Assembly: GCA_016840855.1 (NCBI GenBank)
Contig: JAEORO010000097.1
Span: forward strand, 1-10,214
Length of the DNA stretch: 10,214 nucleotides
Direction of reading: 5' to 3'
Source of the DNA: Candidatus Thorarchaeota archaeon
GTDB lineage: Archaea > Asgardarchaeota > Thorarchaeia > Thorarchaeales > Thorarchaeaceae
The position numbers and the translations under genes are program-made. Positions within the stretch are counted from its first letter, which is position 1; every line of letters starts with the position of its first letter. Shown here piece by piece: positions 120-9,017 of the stretch. Under the pieces are notes generated by a model. That model did no database searches. It saw only the letters and a list, made by a program, of their open reading frames with translations, and had not been told where the DNA came from.

Positions 120-149
120 ACTCTATCACATTTCGTGATAGGGAGATTA
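120..149 (+). other. tRNA-Met intron in the T-loop, position 59/60 (30 nt)
   Basis: 9-bp inner hairpin CTCTATCAC (121-129)/GTGATAGGG (135-143). Bulges AA|A (118-120) and TA|T (148-150); outer helix is the T-stem. The central 4-nt helix is relaxed (2 Watson-Crick pairs). A boundary of 119-148 gives the same spliced product. Confidence 0.85.
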
Positions 150-198
150 TCCCACCTGCGGCACCATCTCATTAAAAGCATCTCATCAAAAATTTCAC

Positions 199-217
199 TC
201 ATGACGGGGTTATTAGG
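199..217 (+). promoter_or_regulatory. Putative promoter motif TCATGAC-N3-GTTATTAGG upstream of the small ORF at 238
   Basis: TATA-like TTATTAG starts 28 nt before the ATG (leaderless spacing). A near-identical motif lies at 4182-4200. Confidence 0.6.
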
Positions 218-237
218 AACAATCTACACTCAAAACC

Positions 238-450
238 ATGAAGAAAGAAAAGTGGAAATTAGTAGGTGGTCGTGTCTATAGACTTGTGGAAGTCTTTGAC
301 AACATAGTTGATGCAACACTACAAGCTCGAGAATTGAAAGAAAATAATCATGTGTTCCTCTCAAAGCTGAGGAAAAATCATTGGGCTGTTTATTATAGAC
401 CAAAGGATCCTAATATTGAATGTACTCCCAAGCACTTCAATTTAGTATAG
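238..450 (+). CDS. Small hypothetical protein (70 aa), paralogue of 4221..4424
   Basis: Aligns without gaps to the 4221 ORF (WxLxxGxVYRLV ... WAVYxRPK), which supports real coding status. Confidence 0.8.
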   Translation: MKKEKWKLVGGRVYRLVEVFDNIVDATLQARELKENNHVFLSKLRKNHWAVYYRPKDPNIECTPKHFNLV

Positions 451-472
451 GTTATTTTCATTTCCATTGGTG

Positions 473-481
473 CTTAATAGA
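473..481 (+). promoter_or_regulatory. Putative TATA box (CTTAATAGA) for the ORF at 502
   Basis: TTAATAG starts 28 nt before ATG 502, the same spacing as for the ORFs at 238 and 4221. Confidence 0.45.
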
Positions 482-501
482 TTCTAAAAGAACATAGAAT
501 C

Positions 502-813
502 ATGACATTCGATCCAATAGTAACCGAGGATGATATTGAGAATAGAAGAATTAAGATTGAATCTTTGGGTAGAATTGTCAGGCAGCTTCAACGACCACAT
601 TTTGAGAAACTCATTCGAGAATCAGTCATCTCAGGAGTTGTTGATATAACAGACTGGACAATTGATGCCGTGAAAACACTACTAAAAGTCTGTGCAGAAA
701 AAAATCTCAAAATTACACTAAAAAATGGCGCGAGATACCTCATGCCGGTTATGTATCCAAATGCCCAGATGTTAGAATCATTCGCAAATGTCATCGTGTC
801 TGGTGAATGGTGA
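502..813 (+). CDS. Hypothetical protein (103 aa)
   Basis: ATG-start ORF filling the gap between neighbours on the same strand, with protein-like composition. No family recognised. Confidence 0.7.
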   Translation: MTFDPIVTEDDIENRRIKIESLGRIVRQLQRPHFEKLIRESVISGVVDITDWTIDAVKTLLKVCAEKNLKITLKNGARYLMPVMYPNAQMLESFANVIVSGEW

Positions 814-880
814 AGCATTTCTAACCGCGCTTTGAAAATCTCTTTATTGCCGCTTGATATGAACAAAGTAGGTGATACTC

Positions 881-2086
881 ATGGTGTTCGCTTTCAAGAC
901 GCTCGATGATATAGATTATGTTGGAAAGAAAATACTACTTCGTGTTGACATGAATTGCTCAGTAGATCCTGAAACTAAACAAATTACTGATATTTCACGA
1001 ATTGAAGCAATCCAAGAAACGTTAAATGAACTCTCTAGAAGCAAAGTAGTTCTGATGGCTCACCAAGGAAGTCCAGGAAGTGATGATTTTATCTCACTTG
1101 AACAGCATACTGAAATCCTAAAGCAACTTGGATTCAGAGCGAGCTTCATTGACGACATCTTTGGAGAAAAGGCAAAGAAAGCTATATCTCAGGTCAAAAA
1201 TGGCGAAATTCTAGTTCTTCAGAACGTCAGATATTTTGAAGGCGAACTAAAAAAAGCACCACCTTCTGAAGTTGCCAAGGAGAAAATTGTACAAGAGCTT
1301 TACCCCCTTTTCGATTTCTTTGTGAATGATGCCTTCGGAGCTTCACATCGTTCCCAGGCATCAATTGTTGGATTTACTACAGTACTCCCATCTGTTGCTG
1401 GAAGACTTGTAGAGAAAGAGATTCGTACACTTACTGCTGCAACAGATACTGACCAGCATCCTTGGACTCTAGTACTTGGAGGAAGTAAAGTAGAAGATAA
1501 GGTTGACATACTAAATAAGCTTCTAGCAACCAACAGAGTTGATAATGCACTCCTAGGGGGGCTCATTGGAACACTCTTTCTTATAGCTGATGCAAAAGTT
1601 CCTGAGAGCTACTCGAAATCAATCAAAGGTTATGATTCAGCAGTCGACACAGCACGAAAACTTCTGAGCAAATACCCAGACATTATGATACTTCCTGAGG
1701 ATGCCTCTGTAGAGAGAAATGGGGAAAGGTTTGACTGCACTTTCACCCAAATGCAAAATCACCCGTTCTTAGATATTGGCTTGAAGACATCTAAAAAGTA
1801 TGCAAGAATCATCAAGGACTCTGCAGTAGTTTTTGCCAATGGCCCAATGGGATATTTTGAGAAAGAGGTTTTTGCAAAAGGTACAACTGAAGTGCTAAAA
1901 GCAATTGCAGAATGCAAAGGAGTTACTGTTGTGGGTGGAGGTCACATGGGAGCTATGGCAAAGAAGATGTCACTCGAAAATCGTATTACACATATTAGCA
2001 CTGGAGGCGGGGCAACAATTAATTTCCTAACTGGAAAAAAATTAGATCTAATTGCTGCTCTGGAAGCTGCTGCTCAGAGAATGTAA
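881..2086 (+). CDS. pgk: Phosphoglycerate kinase
   Basis: Motifs LLRVDMN, AHQGSPG, QNVRY, FVNDAFGASHR, LGGSK, ANGPMGYFE, VGGGH and HISTGGGA. Start moved from GTG 872 to ATG 881 because AGGTGA (870-875) is a ribosome-binding site. Confidence 0.97.
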   Translation: MVFAFKTLDDIDYVGKKILLRVDMNCSVDPETKQITDISRIEAIQETLNELSRSKVVLMAHQGSPGSDDFISLEQHTEILKQLGFRASFIDDIFGEKAKKAISQVKNGEILVLQNVRYFEGELKKAPPSEVAKEKIVQELYPLFDFFVNDAFGASHRSQASIVGFTTVLPSVAGRLVEKEIRTLTAATDTDQHPWTLVLGGSKVEDKVDILNKLLATNRVDNALLGGLIGTLFLIADAKVPESYSKSIKGYDSAVDTARKLLSKYPDIMILPEDASVERNGERFDCTFTQMQNHPFLDIGLKTSKKYARIIKDSAVVFANGPMGYFEKEVFAKGTTEVLKAIAECKGVTVVGGGHMGAMAKKMSLENRITHISTGGGATINFLTGKKLDLIAALEAAAQRM

Positions 2087-2124
2087 AATTAATTTTAAAA
2101 GTTGGCTTTAGATTACGAAATAGG

Positions 2125-2200
2125 TGGAGCCCCAGGCGAGATTTGAACTCGCGACCTGCTGATTACAAGTCAGCCGCTATAGCCTCTAAGCCACTGGGGC
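2125..2200 (-). tRNA. tRNA-Thr(TGT), intronless, CCA encoded
   Basis: Reverse complement GCCCCAG TG GCTTAGAGGCTATAGC G GCTGA CT-TGT-AA TCAGC AGGTC GCGAG TTCAAAT CTCGC CTGGGGC T CCA (76 nt). Confidence 0.97.
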
Positions 2201-2223
2201 ACAACCTGCTGGTCAATCTGAAC

Positions 2224-2240
2224 ATATTATAGAGTTTTCG
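2224..2240 (-). promoter_or_regulatory. BRE/TATA promoter of tRNA-Thr
   Basis: Minus strand CGAAAACTCTATAATAT, about 25-40 nt upstream of the tRNA 5' end. Confidence 0.6.
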
Positions 2241-2251
2241 TAGCAGCACCT

Positions 2252-2794
2252 CTACTTGTCATGATACACATTATCTATGATAATGGCGTAAGCGAGTAAC
2301 ATCATTCTGGGTGCCATAGGATCAACAATGTGAATCACATATCTGTCTTTGAAGTTGAAGGCTGGAGCAAAGATATCTCTCCACTTATCGCTTTTCTTGA
2401 TTTCAGCGTATACTCTATTCTTATCATGAGCGTCTGTGATTGTAAAGTTCCACTTCATGACTCCGCCTTGAGCTTTGTATATCATTCTGTCCTCTGAATC
2501 ATACATATCAACAGAGCCTCTTATTGCAATCATAGGTTTCTTTCCTCGACCAATCAGTTCACCTGTGGGTGCTTTGACATCATAGATTGGGCGAGCGCTC
2601 ACCAGTTTCTTATTGATAATACAAACAACAGAATCATCAGGGTTTCTCAACTCAATTTCAGCACGCATCGATATGAGTTTCCTCTTCATTGATCCTATTT
2701 TCTCACCGTGCGTGTTGTAAATGTCACCACCGCCAAACTTCCACGCTTTTTCATGTAGCACATAAAATTCAATTGATGGGTCAAAAAGGCTCAT
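2252..2794 (-). CDS. LURP-one-related / scramblase / tubby-like beta-barrel protein (180 aa)
   Basis: Repeated units of the type [IY]xxxxGxxIGxxxxK, a C-terminal DRYVIHI strand and a hydrophobic helix MMLLAYAIIID, typical of LURP-one/scramblase folds. RBS AGGTGA lies upstream. Confidence 0.75.
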   Translation of the reverse strand: MSLFDPSIEFYVLHEKAWKFGGGDIYNTHGEKIGSMKRKLISMRAEIELRNPDDSVVCIINKKLVSARPIYDVKAPTGELIGRGKKPMIAIRGSVDMYDSEDRMIYKAQGGVMKWNFTITDAHDKNRVYAEIKKSDKWRDIFAPAFNFKDRYVIHIVDPMAPRMMLLAYAIIIDNVYHDK

Positions 2795-3152
2795 ATTTCA
2801 TCACCTTGAATAGTTATTTGTATGAAATAAATCCAATTAAGACAAACTAGGCTGCATACCTAATATTGAAGTCAATACCAGTGAATGAAAGATATAGCAA
2901 CACTTCCAATAGAAAGATTAACTCGACCTCCTCTGAAATTGGCAGTTAGCCATCAACCATTATCTAATAAGTGTTAAATTTCATCCAAGAATGAAATATC
3001 TTTATGAGTGCCCATGTTTAAGTAACTGATAAGGACCATTTCCCTAAGGAATAAGACACACGTCTTACAAACCCTAATCCTTACGAGAAAAGTAAAATAG
3101 CGTACAAAATTGCCTAGGAAGGCATAGGACGAAGTACTAGTAGGTGAAACAA

Positions 3153-4118
3153 TTGCAAACCCCCTATTCACAATTCGCAGGATCCATAGTAGACCTATTC
3201 AGACCAATCTCAGACTTTTTCCAATCTCTTGGTATCCCATTTGGCCCAATAGCATGGATGTTTATCATAGCTGTAACTCCATTGTTTCTGATAATAGTCC
3301 TACTGGTGTTTCGTGGACGTCGTGTTTCCAAAAGTGCTGGTGTAGATGAGGGAATTAGGAAAATCATCGCATCAACTGGTGATGTTTCAACCGGTATCTC
3401 AGGTGCAAAGAAACTCAAATTCCTAAAAACGCCATCACAGGCACTGGTTTTTCTGAAAATTGAAGAGAATGCTATCCAACAAGCTCTATCTGCAATTGAT
3501 TACTTCAATCAACAGGGTGACATTGATGAATCCATAAAGGACAAGCTTGTCACTGTATACCAAGATCGTCTTGCATCTGTACGAGATGCTTTAGCAAGAG
3601 ATGAACAACTCAAGGAAATAGTAGACACATCTTCTGCAGTTGATAGAGCACGTTCAGATTATCTAGCGAAACTTGCTGCAATGTCAGGAACTGCTGTTGA
3701 ATCTGATACAGAAGATGCTGGACCGTCCAGTGTTGGAATGCCTGACGTGGTAAGTACCGGTCCCCCCAGTGGTGGTCCCCCAGGTGGCGGTCCTCCAGGT
3801 GGTGCTCCTCCTAGCGGTGGTCCTCCAGGTGGCGGCCCCCCAAGTGGTGGTCCCCCGGGTGGCGGTCCCCCCAGTGGTGGTCCATCGGGCGGTGCTCCCG
3901 CAGCCCAAGCAGCTCCAATCACAACTCCTCCAAGTGGCGGTCCTCCTAGTGGTGGTCCACCGACTGGTGCAGCTCCTACTACTACACCTCCAAGTAGTGG
4001 TCCACCAGGTGCTGCAACAATTGAAGATGCTCCAAAACCTATGGGTGGAAAGAGTTCTCTACAGTCAGAAATGTTAGCTGAAATGGAGCGATTGAAAGCT
4101 CTCATGGGTGGAGACTGA
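3153..4118 (+). CDS. Membrane-anchored Pro/Gly-rich repeat protein with a helical domain and a C-terminal amphipathic helix
   Basis: TM segment IAWMFIIAVTPLFLIIVLLVF followed by RGRR, then a helical region, 14 PPxGG-type units and a terminal SSLQSEMLAEMERLKALMGGD. Start placed at TTG 3153 after the RBS AGGTGA (3142-3147); the ORF track starts at GTG 3144. Confidence 0.85.
   Translation: MQTPYSQFAGSIVDLFRPISDFFQSLGIPFGPIAWMFIIAVTPLFLIIVLLVFRGRRVSKSAGVDEGIRKIIASTGDVSTGISGAKKLKFLKTPSQALVFLKIEENAIQQALSAIDYFNQQGDIDESIKDKLVTVYQDRLASVRDALARDEQLKEIVDTSSAVDRARSDYLAKLAAMSGTAVESDTEDAGPSSVGMPDVVSTGPPSGGPPGGGPPGGAPPSGGPPGGGPPSGGPPGGGPPSGGPSGGAPAAQAAPITTPPSGGPPSGGPPTGAAPTTTPPSSGPPGAATIEDAPKPMGGKSSLQSEMLAEMERLKALMGGD
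3762..4016 (+). repeat. Coding 15-nt degenerate tandem repeat (PPSGG/PPGGG pentapeptides)
   Basis: Nine contiguous units at 3762-3896 and five more within 3927-4016. Third codon positions vary between units. Confidence 0.9.
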
Positions 4119-4181
4119 GTTTCAGAAACCTGGCAAATGTAAGTATTTTGCATTTACGAGTGAACAAAACGACGATATTCA

Positions 4182-4200
4182 TCATTACACCGTTAATAGG
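4182..4200 (+). promoter_or_regulatory. Putative promoter motif TCATTAC-N3-GTTAATAGG upstream of the small ORF at 4221
   Basis: Matches 199-217 at 14 of the 16 motif positions and lies at the same distance from the ATG. Confidence 0.6.
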
Positions 4201-4220
4201 TAGCATACGGACAATACTAT

Positions 4221-4424
4221 ATGATGCGGCAGTCACGATGGCAATTGATAGATGGCCAAGTTTATCGGTTAGTAGATATACTTCATAGTAAGATAAATGC
4301 TGAAATTTTAGCCAAATCCCTTGAGGATAACTGTGCTATCGTCATCATATCAACAGAGGATAACAAATGGGCAGTGTACTGGAGACCCAAAACTGGAACT
4401 CTATGTCCATATGGTGTCGTCTAA
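4221..4424 (+). CDS. Small hypothetical protein (67 aa), paralogue of 238..450
   Basis: 21 identities over 56 ungapped positions with the 238 ORF (counted by hand). A T-rich tract follows the stop codon. Confidence 0.8.
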   Translation: MMRQSRWQLIDGQVYRLVDILHSKINAEILAKSLEDNCAIVIISTEDNKWAVYWRPKTGTLCPYGVV

Positions 4425-4494
4425 TTTTTCTCTCTCGGAAGGCTTTTGGGAAGCTTAGTGTACAAGTCAATCATTCACTAATGGTGGCCACGAC

Positions 4495-5178
4495 ATGTCG
4501 AGAGTGAAGCTGAATGCGGCAAAAAGTGTTCTAGAAAAGATACCCAAGACAGGTCCAATTGGTCTTGGCAGTGGATCTACAATTGCAATCTTTGCAAAAG
4601 AGCTTGGAAAACGGATTTTGAATGGTGAGAATGACATCTGTGTCGTACCTAGTTCTTACCAAGCTTACCAATTAGCTATACAATATCAAATTCCTCTCAC
4701 AAATCTTGACATCAATCCAGAATTGGTGATGACAATCGATGGTGCTGATGAGGTTGATAGAAATCTCAACTTAACAAAAGGTGGAGGTGGTGCACTATTT
4801 CAGGAGAAAGTGGTTGCTTCAGCCTCAGAGAAGCTAATAATAATTGTAGATGAATCCAAACTTGTGGACCGACTTGCCTCAAAATTCATGATACCTATAG
4901 AGGTTCTTCCATTCTCCATTGGTGTAGTCAAAAAGAAAATCAGAAACATAGGAATTGAACCCATTGTACGACAAGCTGAGAAAAAGATGGGCCCTGTAGT
5001 GACAGATAATGGGAACTTTATCATAGATCTCAAATTTCCAAAACCAATTGATAATCCTGCAAAAGTCGCAGTAGATTTGAAGATGATACCGGGTGTTATA
5101 GAAACTGGTCTATTTGTCGGAATGACTGACGAAGTACATGTGGGCAAAGAGGACGGGGTTTACATTCTAAAGAAATAA
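4495..5178 (+). CDS. rpiA: Ribose-5-phosphate isomerase A
   Basis: Motifs GLGSGST, IDGADEVD, KGGGGALFQEK, VVTDNGN and PGVIETGLF. Confidence 0.97.
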   Translation: MSRVKLNAAKSVLEKIPKTGPIGLGSGSTIAIFAKELGKRILNGENDICVVPSSYQAYQLAIQYQIPLTNLDINPELVMTIDGADEVDRNLNLTKGGGGALFQEKVVASASEKLIIIVDESKLVDRLASKFMIPIEVLPFSIGVVKKKIRNIGIEPIVRQAEKKMGPVVTDNGNFIIDLKFPKPIDNPAKVAVDLKMIPGVIETGLFVGMTDEVHVGKEDGVYILKK

Positions 5179-5180
5179 TC

Positions 5181-6287
5181 TTACTGATACATAGACCAGA
5201 ATCTACGGAATTTCTCTGTGTATGATAATACATCCGTTGAGTCAACATACTGGTCTATTCCACCCAGATATTTTGGTAATTGTTTCACTTCATCATCTCT
5301 AATCTTTTCATAAATGGCATCTGCAAAATTATCCGCATGAATTATCATGAATGGACGATTGTGGAACTGTGACACACTGGATGACAAAGAATTGGTAATT
5401 TCAAGGTCGTTGTGTTTCTTGGCCATATACTCATACGCCTTTGCCAAATGATTTTGCCTCTCATCCCAGGTACCAGCATTCATAATCTCCATAAACAAGG
5501 GTGTGAGAATCCTTGCACTTTCAAGCTTGGAAAAAGCCGTACCAAACCATTTGATGTATGGCGTGTATTTTCGTTCCATAAGAAAACAAAGCATCATAAT
5601 ATCGGATATCAATCGTGCTGCAATGATGCGAGAGCCAAGCTCATCACTAACTTGACCAGCTCGGCCCATGAATGCCTCTTCTTGAGCTATTCTTCTCCAT
5701 TGGTTTGACAATAGATAAAGCCACAAGTCATTAGGATAATATTCCAATTTTTTGACGATAGGTTCTAACCTCTCCAAATCGTCACGGAAGACTTGTCCAT
5801 TCGCAATACTCAGCAGTATCTGTTGTGGGAGCACTAGCCAATCTATAATACGTAAATCTTCTGTCGGATTAAAACCCAAATACTCGATAAAGAAGCCGCT
5901 AACTGTGTTAATCATGATCCCATGATTCACAGGCCCATCTTCGATAAGTTCCATTCGTGTGGTGCCATCGTCATGATAACCAAAGTTGGTAGGAAATCCT
6001 CGTATTTCGTATGGAAGGTTTTGACTAAGAACATCATTAAGCTCATCTTTAAGAGTCCCATAGTCAGAATCGTCTAAGAAAATCTGCAATTTAGGTCCCC
6101 AATCATGGTCCATTGACTGTGGTGTATCATACCCCAACACATCTGAACCATGTCCTATACGAGCAGCAGAATAAACGAGCTCTGGAAAGTGTTCGTCTAT
6201 AATAGGTTTCACAGCTTCTTCATAGAATGCTTTACTCAAATCCAACCCAGGCAAGAAATCATAGAGCGGGTGATTTTCATCACTCAT
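5181..6287 (-). CDS. DUF4037-domain protein, nucleotidyltransferase-like N-terminus (368 aa)
   Basis: GLDLSKAFY, GHGSDVLGYDTPQSMDHDWGP (GS...DxD), NGQVFRD, YYP, QEEAFMGR and PYIKW motifs recalled as characteristic of DUF4037 proteins. Confidence 0.8.
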   Translation of the reverse strand: MSDENHPLYDFLPGLDLSKAFYEEAVKPIIDEHFPELVYSAARIGHGSDVLGYDTPQSMDHDWGPKLQIFLDDSDYGTLKDELNDVLSQNLPYEIRGFPTNFGYHDDGTTRMELIEDGPVNHGIMINTVSGFFIEYLGFNPTEDLRIIDWLVLPQQILLSIANGQVFRDDLERLEPIVKKLEYYPNDLWLYLLSNQWRRIAQEEAFMGRAGQVSDELGSRIIAARLISDIMMLCFLMERKYTPYIKWFGTAFSKLESARILTPLFMEIMNAGTWDERQNHLAKAYEYMAKKHNDLEITNSLSSSVSQFHNRPFMIIHADNFADAIYEKIRDDEVKQLPKYLGGIDQYVDSTDVLSYTEKFRRFWSMYQ

Positions 6288-6512: not shown

Positions 6513-7784
6513 CTACTCAGCAATCTTTGCAGTGATAGTCGCTCCCTCTTCCATTGCATCAACAAGAATACTGCCTTGTCTTGTTTTTATTCGTATGGAA
6601 CTTTCCCCATTTCTTCCCACAACAGTCGTGAATAGATACATATCGTCTGCGAATATCTCAAGTCTTTGTTTGGCATACTTTCTCCCAGTGTAAATTGTGA
6701 CTTTCTTTTTGCTATAACTCACAGATACAGGGACCGTTTCACCTGGCACACCTTTCCCGACATGATACCTTTCATCTCTTACTGCAGGCGTAAACGTACC
6801 TCTGACTGGAACTACCACTTTCTCTCCCCCAAATGAGAACATTTCAAACTCCAAAATTCCTCGTTCAAAATCTCGGACCTCAACTACTGGTCTTGCTAAA
6901 TCTCTCTGTGTTCCTCCCATCCCAGTAGGCAACTTCACTTTTAATGAGAGAGAAGAAACTTTGGATACTCGTCCATCCTCAATGTGAACAACAGTATCTA
7001 CCGTACTTGGAACTTGTCCCAACTCCACTCTTCCACCAAGAATTAGTCTTTGTAGTGCATCAATAGCTGAACCTGCATGTACAACCCCGACCATTCCTAC
7101 TCCCGCTGAACGAAGATCAGCATAGGCTTGAAAATCAGAATTCTTACGAAGTTCATCGTATATTACAAAATCCGGTCTGACAAGAAGTAGTACGTCTGCT
7201 GCCTTTTCCATACTACCATCAAGAGGAGAATATTGGACTATAGCCTCTTCCACTTGAAGGTCTCTTGGCTGTTCTAGAGTTTTTACAACATTACCCTTAC
7301 TACTATAAAACTCAGCCAAAGCTGCAGCAAAGGTACTCTTACCTGAGCCAGGTGATCCGGAAACAAGTATACCTTCAGCACGTGCTTCTAGCCTAGTCAT
7401 TAGTTTTGGACTTAATTGATAATCCTCAAGGTTCAATTTTACGATTGGCCGGATTGCTGAAATCTCCATCTTATCAGCAAATGGTCGCCTAGCAATAGCA
7501 ATCCTAAGATTTCTTAATTGCACTACAGAAGCTCCATCTTCTTCTATCTCAATAAATGAATTATTGTCATTCTCTGCAGTTTCAAGAATTGCTTCGGCAA
7601 GAATATCTAGCTCCTCAAAGGTAAGAATCCTATCAGAAAGCTCTACCAACTCCCAGTTTCCAGGTTCACCTCTCTTGGCACGAGGCGGGTTGTTTTCTAT
7701 AAGATGTACACTCATTGTATGTTCATCAAAAAATGCCTTGAGTGTCAGAATCTCTTCACTGTCTTCATTATTCGCCACTATCAT
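6513..7784 (-). CDS. PINA/MJ1533-family (PilT-like) P-loop ATPase, apparently lacking the PIN and KH domains
   Basis: FFDEHTMSVHL...AKRGEPGNW family signature, Walker A GSPGSGKST, KTLEQPRDL, LVRPDFVIYDELR (Walker B), GVGMVGVVHA and DLARPVVEVRDF. Likely start is ATG 7784 or GTG 7778, overlapping the endA stop. Confidence 0.85.
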   Translation of the reverse strand: MIVANNEDSEEILTLKAFFDEHTMSVHLIENNPPRAKRGEPGNWELVELSDRILTFEELDILAEAILETAENDNNSFIEIEEDGASVVQLRNLRIAIARRPFADKMEISAIRPIVKLNLEDYQLSPKLMTRLEARAEGILVSGSPGSGKSTFAAALAEFYSSKGNVVKTLEQPRDLQVEEAIVQYSPLDGSMEKAADVLLLVRPDFVIYDELRKNSDFQAYADLRSAGVGMVGVVHAGSAIDALQRLILGGRVELGQVPSTVDTVVHIEDGRVSKVSSLSLKVKLPTGMGGTQRDLARPVVEVRDFERGILEFEMFSFGGEKVVVPVRGTFTPAVRDERYHVGKGVPGETVPVSVSYSKKKVTIYTGRKYAKQRLEIFADDMYLFTTVVGRNGESSIRIKTRQGSILVDAMEEGATITAKIAE

Positions 7785-8403
7785 CACTTCCACGATTTCG
7801 AAGAGTAGCCTGAGCAACTCTATAGAAGTTAACCTCACCATTTTGGTCTACAAGAGCAAAAACAAGCTTCTTACGAGAGCCTGCAGCTGTCTGTGTAACC
7901 ATATCCAAGTCACTTAGAGATATGGGTACACCCTCTTTTAGAACGTATACCAATTGACTAGCACTTGCTGCTCCTGGTTTGTCACCTCTAGCGTATATAC
8001 GAAATCCAATCCCATTACCAAATCCCTGGCGTACAGCATAACCTCTACTTCTCAGGTCTCTAAACACGAGATATCTAGTCCAAAGGTCAGGGTTTTCATC
8101 AAGCAGTTCACTCACGATAGCATCAGGTCCTACTATCTCTCCATCAGGTTTTCTCACAATCAGGCGTTTTCTTTCAATAAGGTGTAAAAGCTCAACAGGC
8201 TCTAATTCAAGTCTATTAGCTTCAATCCTGTTTCCATAGAATCCTTGTTGCGAGATTCGGTCAGAATCCTTACTACCCACATACCCCTTCTTGTTTTCAA
8301 AAATGGCCTCTGCAGGTTCTTCAATGATTTCTTCTTCTGATTCAAGTTCTTCAAAATCTTCTGAAGAATCTTGCTCGAAAAATTCGTCATCATCATTTGT
8401 CAA
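7768..8403 (-). CDS. endA: tRNA-splicing endonuclease family protein, probable structural (non-catalytic) subunit
   Basis: GFYG, LEPVELLHL, YLVFRDLRSRGYAV, FRIY, RKKLVFALVD and GEVNFY match EndA. Ser occupies the catalytic His position. Likely start is TTG 8403 after AGGCGAG; the ORF track starts at 8466. Confidence 0.88.
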   Translation of the reverse strand: MTNDDDEFFEQDSSEDFEELESEEEIIEEPAEAIFENKKGYVGSKDSDRISQQGFYGNRIEANRLELEPVELLHLIERKRLIVRKPDGEIVGPDAIVSELLDENPDLWTRYLVFRDLRSRGYAVRQGFGNGIGFRIYARGDKPGAASASQLVYVLKEGVPISLSDLDMVTQTAAGSRKKLVFALVDQNGEVNFYRVAQATLRNRGSDDSGE

Positions 8404-8498: not shown

Positions 8499-9017
8499 GT
8501 GTCAATCAACAGCTTTGAGGATGAGCTAAGGAACTTCATTTCAGGTGGTAATAAGATAGCAATTCTCGGTATTGGGAACGACCTAAGGTCAGATGATGGA
8601 CTTGGTTCTTACATTATTGAAAAGCTTAGAATCGACGATCCTCGAGTGATGGTTGAGTTTGTCGGATCTGTTCCTGAAGGATTTGCACGACCATTAGCTG
8701 AGTTCGGTGCTGAGAGAATAATCATGGTTGATGCAGCAGACATGAACAAGGCTCCTGGTCATATCGAACTCATCACCAAGGACCGCATACGTGGAATCAA
8801 TATCAGTACGCACAGTATGCCGCTTTCATTTCTTATGATGTACTTAGAACAAGAAACAGGTAGTACAACAATACTGCTTGGTATTCAGCCAAAAAGTATA
8901 CAGTTTGGTGAAGGTTTAACACCAGAGATTCAAGAAGTGGCTGACCGAATAATCAACGCATTAGAAAGCGTATTGAAAAGACACTTGAGAGGACTGACAG
9001 ATGTTTCGAACGATTGA
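8499..9017 (+). CDS. hycI: Hydrogenase maturation protease, HycI type
   Basis: Motifs LGIGNDLRSDDGLG, VPE, MVDAAD, STHSMPL, LLGIQP and FGEGLT. Confidence 0.9.
   Translation: MSINSFEDELRNFISGGNKIAILGIGNDLRSDDGLGSYIIEKLRIDDPRVMVEFVGSVPEGFARPLAEFGAERIIMVDAADMNKAPGHIELITKDRIRGINISTHSMPLSFLMMYLEQETGSTTILLGIQPKSIQFGEGLTPEIQEVADRIINALESVLKRHLRGLTDVSND

Follow-up and report, generated by a model that had tools for sequence, protein, structure and literature searches.

A predicted membrane-anchored protein of Thorarchaeia carries an almost invariant C-terminal helix shared across Asgard archaea

The 10,214-nucleotide contig JAEORO010000097.1 of a Candidatus Thorarchaeota archaeon (contig C31 of assembly GCA_016840855.1, which comprises 3.36 Mb in 259 contigs and is 92% complete with 6% contamination), referred to below as the window, carries on its forward strand a gene for a protein of 321 residues (3153..4118, TTG start, stop codon TGA at 4116–4118). 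It encodes the membrane-anchored representative of a set of Asgard proteins, near-universal and hitherto undescribed, that combine a proline-rich arm with an almost invariant, putatively docking helix at the C-terminus. From sequence comparison and structure models we propose, with middling confidence, that the thorarchaeal protein acts as a flexible single-pass membrane tether displaying this helix to a conserved cytoplasmic partner. The original prediction, made from the nucleotide sequence of the window, had described a membrane-tethered repeat protein with the architecture of an adaptor for the cytoskeleton or for the endosomal sorting machinery known as ESCRT. Residues are numbered here from the GTG at 3144 that opens the mechanically defined open reading frame (ORF) of 324 codons (3144–4118, forward strand); three has to be subtracted for numbering from the TTG start.

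Conservation of the C-terminal helix

The C-terminal module, GKSSLQSEMLAEMERLKALMGGD (residues 302–324, 4047..4115, forward strand), contains in the AlphaFold2 model one amphipathic helix at residues 305–321 (nucleotides 4056–4106), in agreement with the single terminal amphipathic helix of the original prediction. Comparison with 28 Thorarchaeota homologues reveals that this helix, whose conservation had been regarded as decisive, is the best-kept part of the protein: the mean identity to the window protein is 98.8% in the tail, as against 82.9% in the helical hairpin, 74.2% in the transmembrane (TM) helix and 58.2% in the proline-rich linker. Among 60 tails of the Thorarchaeota type, 57 distinct DNA sequences encode 11 peptides, the pairwise codon differences amount to 15,421 synonymous versus 2,208 nonsynonymous ones, and all six leucine codons are in use at the invariant leucine positions. 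The large excess of synonymous differences and the reduction of 57 DNA sequences to 11 peptides point to strong purifying selection on the tail peptide and not on the DNA. In an alignment of three subfamilies that are 27–31% identical overall, residues L306, E309, M310, L311, E313, R316, L317 and M321 of the tail are all invariant, and few invariant columns are found in the body of the protein. A resemblance of the last residues to the C-terminal G-G-[DEQ] of ubiquitin- or Pup-like proteins was considered and ruled out, the thorarchaeal ends being variable (GGD, SGD, MGE, SGE, MGG) and those of other lineages quite different.

Distribution and carriers of the tail module

A full-length profile matches 294 of 400 Asgard genomes. 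Since the proline-rich part inflates this count, a profile of the tail only was built from 16 sequences of 10 lineages (profile A6, 34 columns, the window tail being one of the 16 rows). At E ≤ 0.01 this profile matches 346 of the 400 genomes and 85 of the 90 genomes of high quality (at least 90% complete, at most 5% contamination), mostly once per genome; no match was obtained in families f29 (0/7), f30 (0/5), f6, f8, f27 and f28. The consensus of the helix reads L-R-x-E-M-L-x-E-L-x-R-L-K-K-x-M. With 59.6 bits (E 1.2e-15) the window gene matches a profile that includes its own tail and, independently of this score, its tail aligns with the tails of other lineages; it possesses the elements by which the module is defined, i.e. 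an A6-type helix at the extreme C-terminus preceded by a proline-rich disordered stretch. Within its own genome the tail motif and the PPxGG run are each present solely in this gene. The phyletic survey of the terminal motif that the original prediction had advised thus shows a module that is phylum-wide and not tied to a membrane anchor, two points that had escaped the first reading.

The N-terminal part of the protein is much more restricted. When 1.84 billion representatives are searched with a profile of the N-terminal 195 residues, no more than 9 proteins match at E ≤ 1e-3, and the combination of TM helix and hairpin is limited to Thorarchaeia and a few sister lineages. One of the proteins from the representative search (P0128, E 1.6e-5), whose relatives are labelled Sifarchaeia or 'Asgard group', follows the same plan of TM helix, hairpin, proline-rich stretch and similar last helix. 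The tail is carried by proteins with a single TM helix and a hairpin in families f1 (Thorarchaeota), f2, f5, f18 and f32, by proteins with a polytopic N-terminus and a hairpin in f16 and f11, and by soluble proteins of approximately 215–290 residues in f9, f25, f3, f19 and f20. The model of the soluble form shows one long helix (residues 2–58, predicted local distance difference test (pLDDT) about 93), a short helix covering an A-A-S-x-L-F-x-x-L-S-G motif, a proline-rich arm that holds the invariant motifs L-P-P-A-P-K-L-P-P and P-S-F-A-K-R-P, and the tail helix (pLDDT 91–92). The hairpin of the TM carriers and the N-terminal helix of the soluble ones show no detectable homology (hhalign probability 0.1%), so that the portable conserved unit consists of a short motif, the proline-rich arm and the terminal helix. 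The occurrence of the same module on unrelated N-termini across Asgard archaea therefore suggests a pan-Asgard recruiting device that the thorarchaeal protein represents in membrane-anchored form.

The tail helix also recurs in other protein contexts. A tail-like L-[RK]-x-E-M-L-x-E-L-x-x-L-[KR] motif lies inside a 559-residue protein of f9 with zinc-ribbon and vWA-like domains (E 1.7e-6), weaker copies are found in f9 zinc-ribbon proteins of about 150 residues (E ~1e-3 to 5e-3), and another one is situated near the end of a 259-residue protein (E 4e-3); the corresponding loci are L187 (G167:C44), L188, L189, L191 and L190. A second element of the window protein behaves in a similar manner. Motif A, ARSDYLAKLAAMSGT (residues 169–183, 3648..3692, forward strand), forms a block of invariant columns at positions 169–183, just N-terminal to the linker, and reappears (A-R-S-D-Y-L-x-K-L-A-A-M-S-G-T) in P0129, an unrelated thorarchaeal membrane protein of 475 residues that matches the profile of the window protein at positions 159–189 only and shares with it only the stretch A-I-D-K-A-R-S-D-Y-L-R-T-L-A-A-M-S-G-T-T-V-E. 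The soluble relatives carry analogous short hydrophobic motifs ending in S-G-G. The recurrence of the tail-like helix and of motif A in unrelated proteins suggests that both are short linear motifs read by other proteins. P0129 also possesses a C-terminal zinc ribbon and gives a weak, sub-threshold CdvA-like coiled-coil match (16.7 bits).

The same observations bear on the possibility, unlikely in our view, that the helix is a short coiled coil joining copies of the protein to one another or to their own hairpin, the product being a clustered scaffold with the multivalent proline-rich arm as its working surface. Indeed, the helix is about 2.5 heptads long, its positions 306, 310, 311, 314, 317, 320 and 321 are hydrophobic, and the tail profile aligns with the last heptads of GCN4 zipper adaptors over E-L-x-R-L-K-K-L-M, the E-values of 0.057–0.6 not being significant. 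Moreover, the N-terminus of the soluble relatives is one long helix for which the fold search matches only coiled-coil segments, and the invariant L-P-P-A-P-K-L-P-P and P-S-F-A-K-R-P motifs within their arm argue that the arm itself is a ligand. However, the polar residues E309, E313, R316 and K318 are as invariant throughout the phylum as the hydrophobic ones, which distinguishes the tail from GCN4 and is more than a simple zipper needs, and a helix of seventeen residues is rather short to form a stable coiled coil. The presence of the motif inside unrelated proteins with vWA and zinc-ribbon domains, or with zinc ribbons, is better explained by a shared external reader, and two monomer models show no packing of the tail on the N-terminal helices, with no structural match spanning both elements. 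We consequently retain docking of the helix to a separate partner as the preferred reading.

Membrane anchor and topology

The only strongly hydrophobic segment of the protein is a single TM helix, W38–F56 (3255..3311, forward strand; mean Kyte-Doolittle value 2.88 over 19 residues), modelled as a helix at residues 35–59. It is followed by an RGRR stop-transfer cluster (residues 57–60, 3312..3323, forward strand), in which R57 and R59 are invariant and which would mark the cytoplasmic side. Over 22 Thorarchaeota sequences the 15-residue flanks of the TM helix have a mean net charge of −0.9 on the N side and of +2.2 on the C side. This positive-inside pattern predicts an N-out, C-in topology with a cytoplasmic C-terminus, as had been proposed from one TM helix followed by RGRR. 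Soluble relatives that share the tail have neither a TM segment nor a signal peptide, which implies that the tail works in the cytoplasm and leaves the extracellular C-terminus considered in the original prediction without support.

The opposite orientation (N-in, C-out) would turn the protein into an extracytoplasmic stalk, the Pro/Gly/Ser stretch being a glycosylated surface spacer and the helix a surface ligand. Archaeal surface proteins commonly have Pro/Ser/Thr-rich spacers, and the sole Pfam match of the whole protein is to Extensin_1, at 20.9 bits for a cut-off of 105 and due to composition only. The positive-inside charges of the 22 sequences, the lack of a signal peptide and the same arm and tail in relatives devoid of a hydrophobic segment are all at odds with such a stalk, which we regard as hardly credible.

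Upstream of the TM helix, residues 4–37 (3153..3254, forward strand) comprise a predicted amphipathic helix (residues 6–28) and end in a conserved GIPFGP motif; F19, P32, G34, P35, A37 and W38, the last of these being the first residue of the TM helix, are invariant. The predicted position of this N-terminal segment is extracellular or interfacial. On the other side, the juxtamembrane stretch (residues 61–94, 3324..3425, forward strand) displays a conserved IIASTGDVS..G..KK motif with invariant A76, S77, G79, D80, S82, G84 and G87, and is modelled at low confidence (pLDDT 39–44) with a helix at residues 68–79.

The proline-rich linker

The Pro/Gly/Ser-rich linker between hairpin and tail (residues 188–301, 3705..4046, forward strand) is predicted to be disordered: its pLDDT is 34–47 and the model is unstructured at residues 184–304. 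Its length varies from 98 to 150 residues (median 127) among 48 complete thorarchaeal genes, with mean fractions of 0.26 for proline and 0.29 for glycine, and the G+C content of its DNA is 0.59–0.64 compared with about 0.40 elsewhere. Within the linker lie 12 strict P[PS]xG[GA] units (residues 207–276, 3762..3971, forward strand), in whose DNA synonymous codons are mixed; the 14 PPxGG-type units counted previously are reached only loosely, by adding two degenerate ones. Tandem Repeats Finder describes a period of 15 with 8.3 copies and 77% matches at 3759–3883. Units encoding an identical peptide use different codons, and the diversified synonymous codons noted at the outset are thereby confirmed. 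The antisense and out-of-frame ORFs over 3659–4153 are by-products of the GGN/CCN repeat.

The repeat also affects the quality of the database records. Assemblies often break within it (truncated loci L010, L015, L030, L033, L039, L040, L044, L046 and L056), loci L065–L070 begin inside the gene, and the repeat is masked as runs of X in records L049, L057, L061 and L064. Gene calls of this family are often partial because of these breaks and masked stretches. In some database entries, such as P0001 with 286 residues, the protein begins at the internal Met39.

The cytoplasmic hairpin and comparison with known families

The hairpin (residues 95–187, 3426..3704, forward strand) is modelled as two helices, 97–123 and 129–181, connected by a turn at QQGDI, and confirms the helical hairpin predicted to follow the TM helix; its pLDDT is 76–81 per 10-residue block, for a mean of 54.8 over the whole AlphaFold2 model. 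The original prediction had noted a loose likeness to CdvA-type coiled coils. Indeed, the CdvA filament 9s9g_A heads the list of structural matches (Z 8.8, root-mean-square deviation 1.3 Å over 70 residues) but about 50 unrelated hairpins score equally well (Z 7.4–8.8), and for helical arrangements a value under about 13 may indicate nothing more than a common arrangement. Further matches at Z 8.5–7.4 comprise the ESCRT-I core, Snf7, a WRB/CAML chain, the cytoplasmic domain of archaeal OST1 and designed hairpins. As modelled, the ties thus probably reflect a common helical hairpin and not kinship. Fold searches with the TM form and the soluble form returned only generic hairpins or long helices, and no family stands out.

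Sequence searches lead to the same picture. Apart from the compositional Extensin_1 match, Pfam recognizes nothing in the window protein, Snf7 included, and at E ≤ 10 nothing relevant was found for the hairpin (residues 61–195) or for the tail; in particular, residues 61–195 do not match CdvA (PF18822) at this threshold, so that the CdvA-like look of the hairpin is confined to the structural comparison. A six-frame scan of the whole genome with the CdvA model at E ≤ 1 retrieves five other loci, none of them on C31, and a scan with Snf7 (PF03357) retrieves loci on C32 and C19, not the gene studied here. Against sequences of the PDB, the full-length profile gives low-complexity matches only, e.g. 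the proline-rich stretch of U1-A, and the tail alone gives nothing, tau appearing at E 4.3. In the ESM Atlas, the matches of the whole protein are limited to its own thorarchaeal clusters (0.86 and 0.83), and the tail has no usable match among the named clusters. The idea that the tail mimics the tail of the ribosomal stalk was followed with PF00428 and with a regular expression, neither of which detects a stalk protein in this genome (92% complete).

A short helix-turn-helix hairpin of the type G-x-I-[SD]-x-x-x-Y-x-x-x-K-x-x-L is encoded elsewhere in the same genome (C28:1780-2046, C93:721-978, C72 and C79). Cation/proton antiporter-like proteins repeatedly carry it at their C-termini, zinc-ribbon proteins contain it as well, and it accounts for the weak matches of the Pfam CdvA model in this genome.

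Both partner systems named in the original prediction are encoded in the genome, with an actin (441 bits), a profilin (25 bits, at the cut-off), a Vps4 with an N-terminal MIT-like domain adjoining a Snf7-family gene, and two Snf7 loci in total (C32 and C19); among the relatives Vps4 is present in 25 of 25 genomes and actin in 24 of 25. An ESCRT adaptor has therefore to be considered, in which the helix, perhaps together with the arm, would be a MIT-interacting motif (MIM) recruiting Vps4, or in which a CdvA- or steadiness-box-like hairpin would nucleate ESCRT-III. The general layout is shared with MIM-containing and CdvA systems, which also present a hairpin near the membrane, a proline-rich segment and a C-terminal helix, and the Vps4 and ESCRT-III needed are at hand. 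The hairpin matches include, besides CdvA, the ESCRT-I core chains 2p22_A (Z 8.5) and 2f66_A (Z 8.4) and Snf7/Asgard ESCRT-IIIB (Z 8.1). Asgard ESCRT-III proteins are moreover reported to carry C-terminal helical MIM1-like and proline-rich MIM2-like motifs (PMC7240154). Nevertheless, these structural matches are indistinguishable from dozens of unrelated hairpins, Pfam finds neither CdvA nor Snf7 in the protein, and by eye the tail departs from the spacing of the usual MIM1 consensus: once R316-L317 is aligned, the upstream leucine position is occupied by E313 and the final basic position by M321. CdvA, an ESCRT adaptor of archaeal membranes, itself lacks a TM anchor; it contains a PRC-barrel and, at its C-terminus, a peptide for the winged helix of CdvB. 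Finally, the gene never lies beside ESCRT genes in 68 thorarchaeal loci and 14 other neighbourhoods. We consider an ESCRT adaptor very unlikely.

Linkage with an actin paralogue and the candidate partner

In family f9, whose tail carriers are soluble, the tail gene is accompanied by an actin-family gene. The latter lies downstream in all seven f9 neighbourhoods fetched and encodes a paralogue of about 373 residues (PF00022, E ~1e-88; for example L168:5041-6159, reverse strand) that is approximately 40% identical to the main actin. Orthologues of this paralogue occur in 117 of 135 f9 genomes. Among the matches listed, 105 genomes possess both the tail gene and the paralogue, and in 101 of these the two are located on one contig, always on the same strand and with the paralogue downstream. 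The gap between them ranges from 128 to 5,895 nucleotides, being at most 350 nucleotides in 29 genomes, 351–1,300 in 60 and longer in 12; in one genome of the 351–1,300 class that was read, a PIG-L gene is inserted between the two.

The leading candidate for the partner is the actin system, that is, an actin-family protein, profilin-actin, or both. This assignment is tentative, possible though less than probable, and the probability left beside it and the readings as ESCRT adaptor and as self-associating helix goes to some other conserved protein. Actin is favoured by the f9 linkage, by the plan of a proline-rich arm followed by a helix, by the L-K-K core of the tail, by the weak binding of polyproline by profilin and by the lack of a known assembly factor. 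A Thorarchaeota profilin is reported to bind a polyproline peptide with a dissociation constant of about 200–500 µM (PMC8410842), an L-K-K-T-type motif has been reported in Asgard gelsolins (PMC9433394), and according to 10.1101/2025.11.30.690169 no actin assembly factor is known in these organisms. Likewise, although actin, profilin and gelsolins are all present in Asgard archaea, the literature searched by us describes no factor that promotes the assembly of Asgard actin filaments or ties them to the membrane.

Several observations weigh against actin, or against docking as such. The linkage is confined to one family (13 genera), whose genomes are related and do not count as independent cases, and no actin-family gene lies within about 7 kb in seven neighbourhoods outside f9 (two of f25 and one each of f3, f5, f15, f16 and f32). 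The synteny of the thorarchaeal gene with the unrelated housekeeping genes RpiA, PGK and a LOR/scramblase-like gene is as conserved as the linkage with actin in f9. Neither WH2 (PF02205) nor another actin-binding family was found in Pfam at E ≤ 10 or among PDB sequences; the WH2 test covered the tail alone, the hairpin and 15 full-length members from 10 lineages, with a model that is short and for motifs of a kind easily missed. Most families have K-K as the basic pair that follows the conserved L-K, and Thorarchaeota have L-K-A (or L-R-T). Self-association is as compatible as docking with the top PDB match obtained for the tail profile, the insignificant one to the GCN4 leucine zipper (E 0.057). 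Lastly, in the families without a tail match (f27–f30, f6 and f8) 14 of the 16 genomes still possess actin and 10 of the 16 possess Snf7, so that co-occurrence with either is non-discriminating; the tail is therefore not obligatory for actin function, or it has diverged there beyond the reach of the profile. Taken as a whole, the adaptor architecture of the original prediction is supported; as to its alternative of cytoskeleton or ESCRT, no WH2, CdvA or Snf7 model matches the protein, and the linkage in f9 speaks for the actin side.

Comparison with known systems helps to situate the module. WASP, WAVE and verprolin with their WH2 motifs and the EVH2 region of Ena/VASP proteins present the same order of elements, namely a helical region for anchoring or assembly, a long disordered proline-rich arm and a short C-terminal amphipathic helix. 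L-K-K occurs in the tails of most Asgard families, the hosts possess actin and profilin, and the f9 form is linked to an actin paralogue. On the other hand, when compared with the usual WH2 consensus, the L-K-K-[IFLY] present in 11 of the 16 A6 tails lies inside one continuous helix instead of following a helix and a linker, and the thorarchaeal tail reads L-K-A. The window protein further lacks the EVH1, GBD and acidic/Trp elements of WASP- or VASP-type factors, and its proline runs are only two residues long (PPxGG). The bacterial ZipA offers a parallel in architecture only: it has a single N-terminal TM anchor, a cytoplasmic bulk, a charged region and a long, flexible proline-rich linker, followed at the C-terminus by the part that binds a cytoskeletal protein, but this FtsZ-binding end is globular and not a 17-residue helix, and no sequence relation exists. 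The WH2-like motif described for the Asgard 2DGel protein, a short basic, actin-contacting stretch of the L-x-x-[TV] type between two domains (PMC9433394; 10.1101/2025.11.30.690169), lies inside a folded gelsolin, unlike the tail at the end of a disordered arm, and there is no homology between the two.

Proposed function

From the gene itself, its predicted topology and disorder, its conservation and spread, and the modularity and linkage of the tail, we derive a proposal for docking, for the reach of the arm and for the partner. The type-III (N-out, C-in) single-pass protein of Thorarchaeia would serve as a flexible tether, held at the inner face of the membrane by the TM helix and the cytoplasmic hairpin, of which the latter probably allows oligomerisation. 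The disordered arm of 98–150 residues could span a few tens of nm, by our own estimate of about 0.3–0.36 nm per residue, and the invariant 17-residue amphipathic helix at its end would dock onto a conserved partner in the cytoplasm. The unit under selection would be the C-terminal module, i.e. the proline-rich stretch together with the helix.

Going further by analogy, the module may be the Asgard version, and perhaps the forerunner, of the combination of a proline-rich region with a WH2 or connector helix in WASP/WAVE/VASP-like proteins, feeding profilin-actin and an actin-family protein into filaments. The TM form would then couple actin assembly to the membrane, and the soluble f9 form would constitute a primitive nucleator together with the actin paralogue. 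In this elaborated form we judge the proposal unlikely.

Gene start, homologues and neighbourhood

The start of the gene is almost certainly the TTG at 3153, as judged from the sequences of aligned loci. A Shine-Dalgarno-like GGTGA (3143..3147, forward strand) is situated 5 nucleotides 5' of it, the codon aligned with it in 61 homologous loci is TTG in 53, ATG in 7 and TTA in one, the latter probably a mis-anchored row of the alignment, and a Shine-Dalgarno-like word precedes the aligned codon in 60 of the 61. The start at 3153 adopted in the original prediction is thus the right one. The non-ATG start is itself kept behind the strong GGTGA, which suggests a deliberately low or regulated initiation of translation.

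At E ≤ 1e-3 the protein has 353 homologues; all names given by the sources for the best 120 of these 353 matches are 'hypothetical protein'. A scan of species-representative genomes identified 68 loci, labelled Thorarchaeota, Promethearchaeota or uncultured archaeon.

The neighbourhood of the gene in Thorarchaeota is rigidly syntenic, in the order PGK, a divergent LOR/scramblase-like gene, the gene described here, a small ORF, RpiA, (DUF4037) and a PilT-like ATPase, followed by the tRNA-splicing endonuclease, HycI and MtnA. In the 68 loci the LOR gene is found 52 times, RpiA 58 times and PGK 52 times. The same RpiA, PilT and EndA neighbours accompany the TM form in f5, f15, f16 and f32, which supports orthology and has no bearing on function. 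The LOR/scramblase-like gene (2252–2794 of the window, reverse strand; tubby-like fold) matches PF03803 with 31.4 bits and PF04525 with 29.6 bits; the presence of a lipid- or membrane-binding protein next to a membrane tether may be meaningful or coincidental.

The window also holds a pair of small paralogous ORFs, 70 and 67 residues long (238–450 and 4221–4424, both on the forward strand), which have no Pfam match and share K/R-W-x-L-x-x-G-x-V-Y-R-L-V ... W-A-V-Y-x-R-P-K. The second begins 103 nucleotides past the stop codon of the tether gene, on the same strand. Relatives occur in 46–47 of the 68 thorarchaeal loci, and both are probably real genes. Overlaps between the mechanically defined ORFs of the tRNA endonuclease and the PilT-like ATPase (74 nucleotides, 7768–7841) and of HycI and MtnA (17 nucleotides, 9001–9017) probably reflect the choice of start codons or true short overlaps.

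Significance

No description of the family or of its tail motif surfaced in the literature on Asgard actin, WH2, Arp and ESCRT/MIM, where the supplements of preprints might list the soluble homologue. The module, built like a recruiting arm, is near-universal, mostly single-copy and unannotated, and throughout the phylum its terminal 17 residues hardly vary; the target of the helix must be central to the cell biology of Asgard archaea and conserved to the same degree. Since the peptide is short and invariant and Asgard strains are available in culture, a simple peptide pull-down should suffice to find its partner. Should this prove to be actin or Vps4, one could test directly how the eukaryotic coupling between membrane and cytoskeleton, or between membrane and ESCRT, originated.

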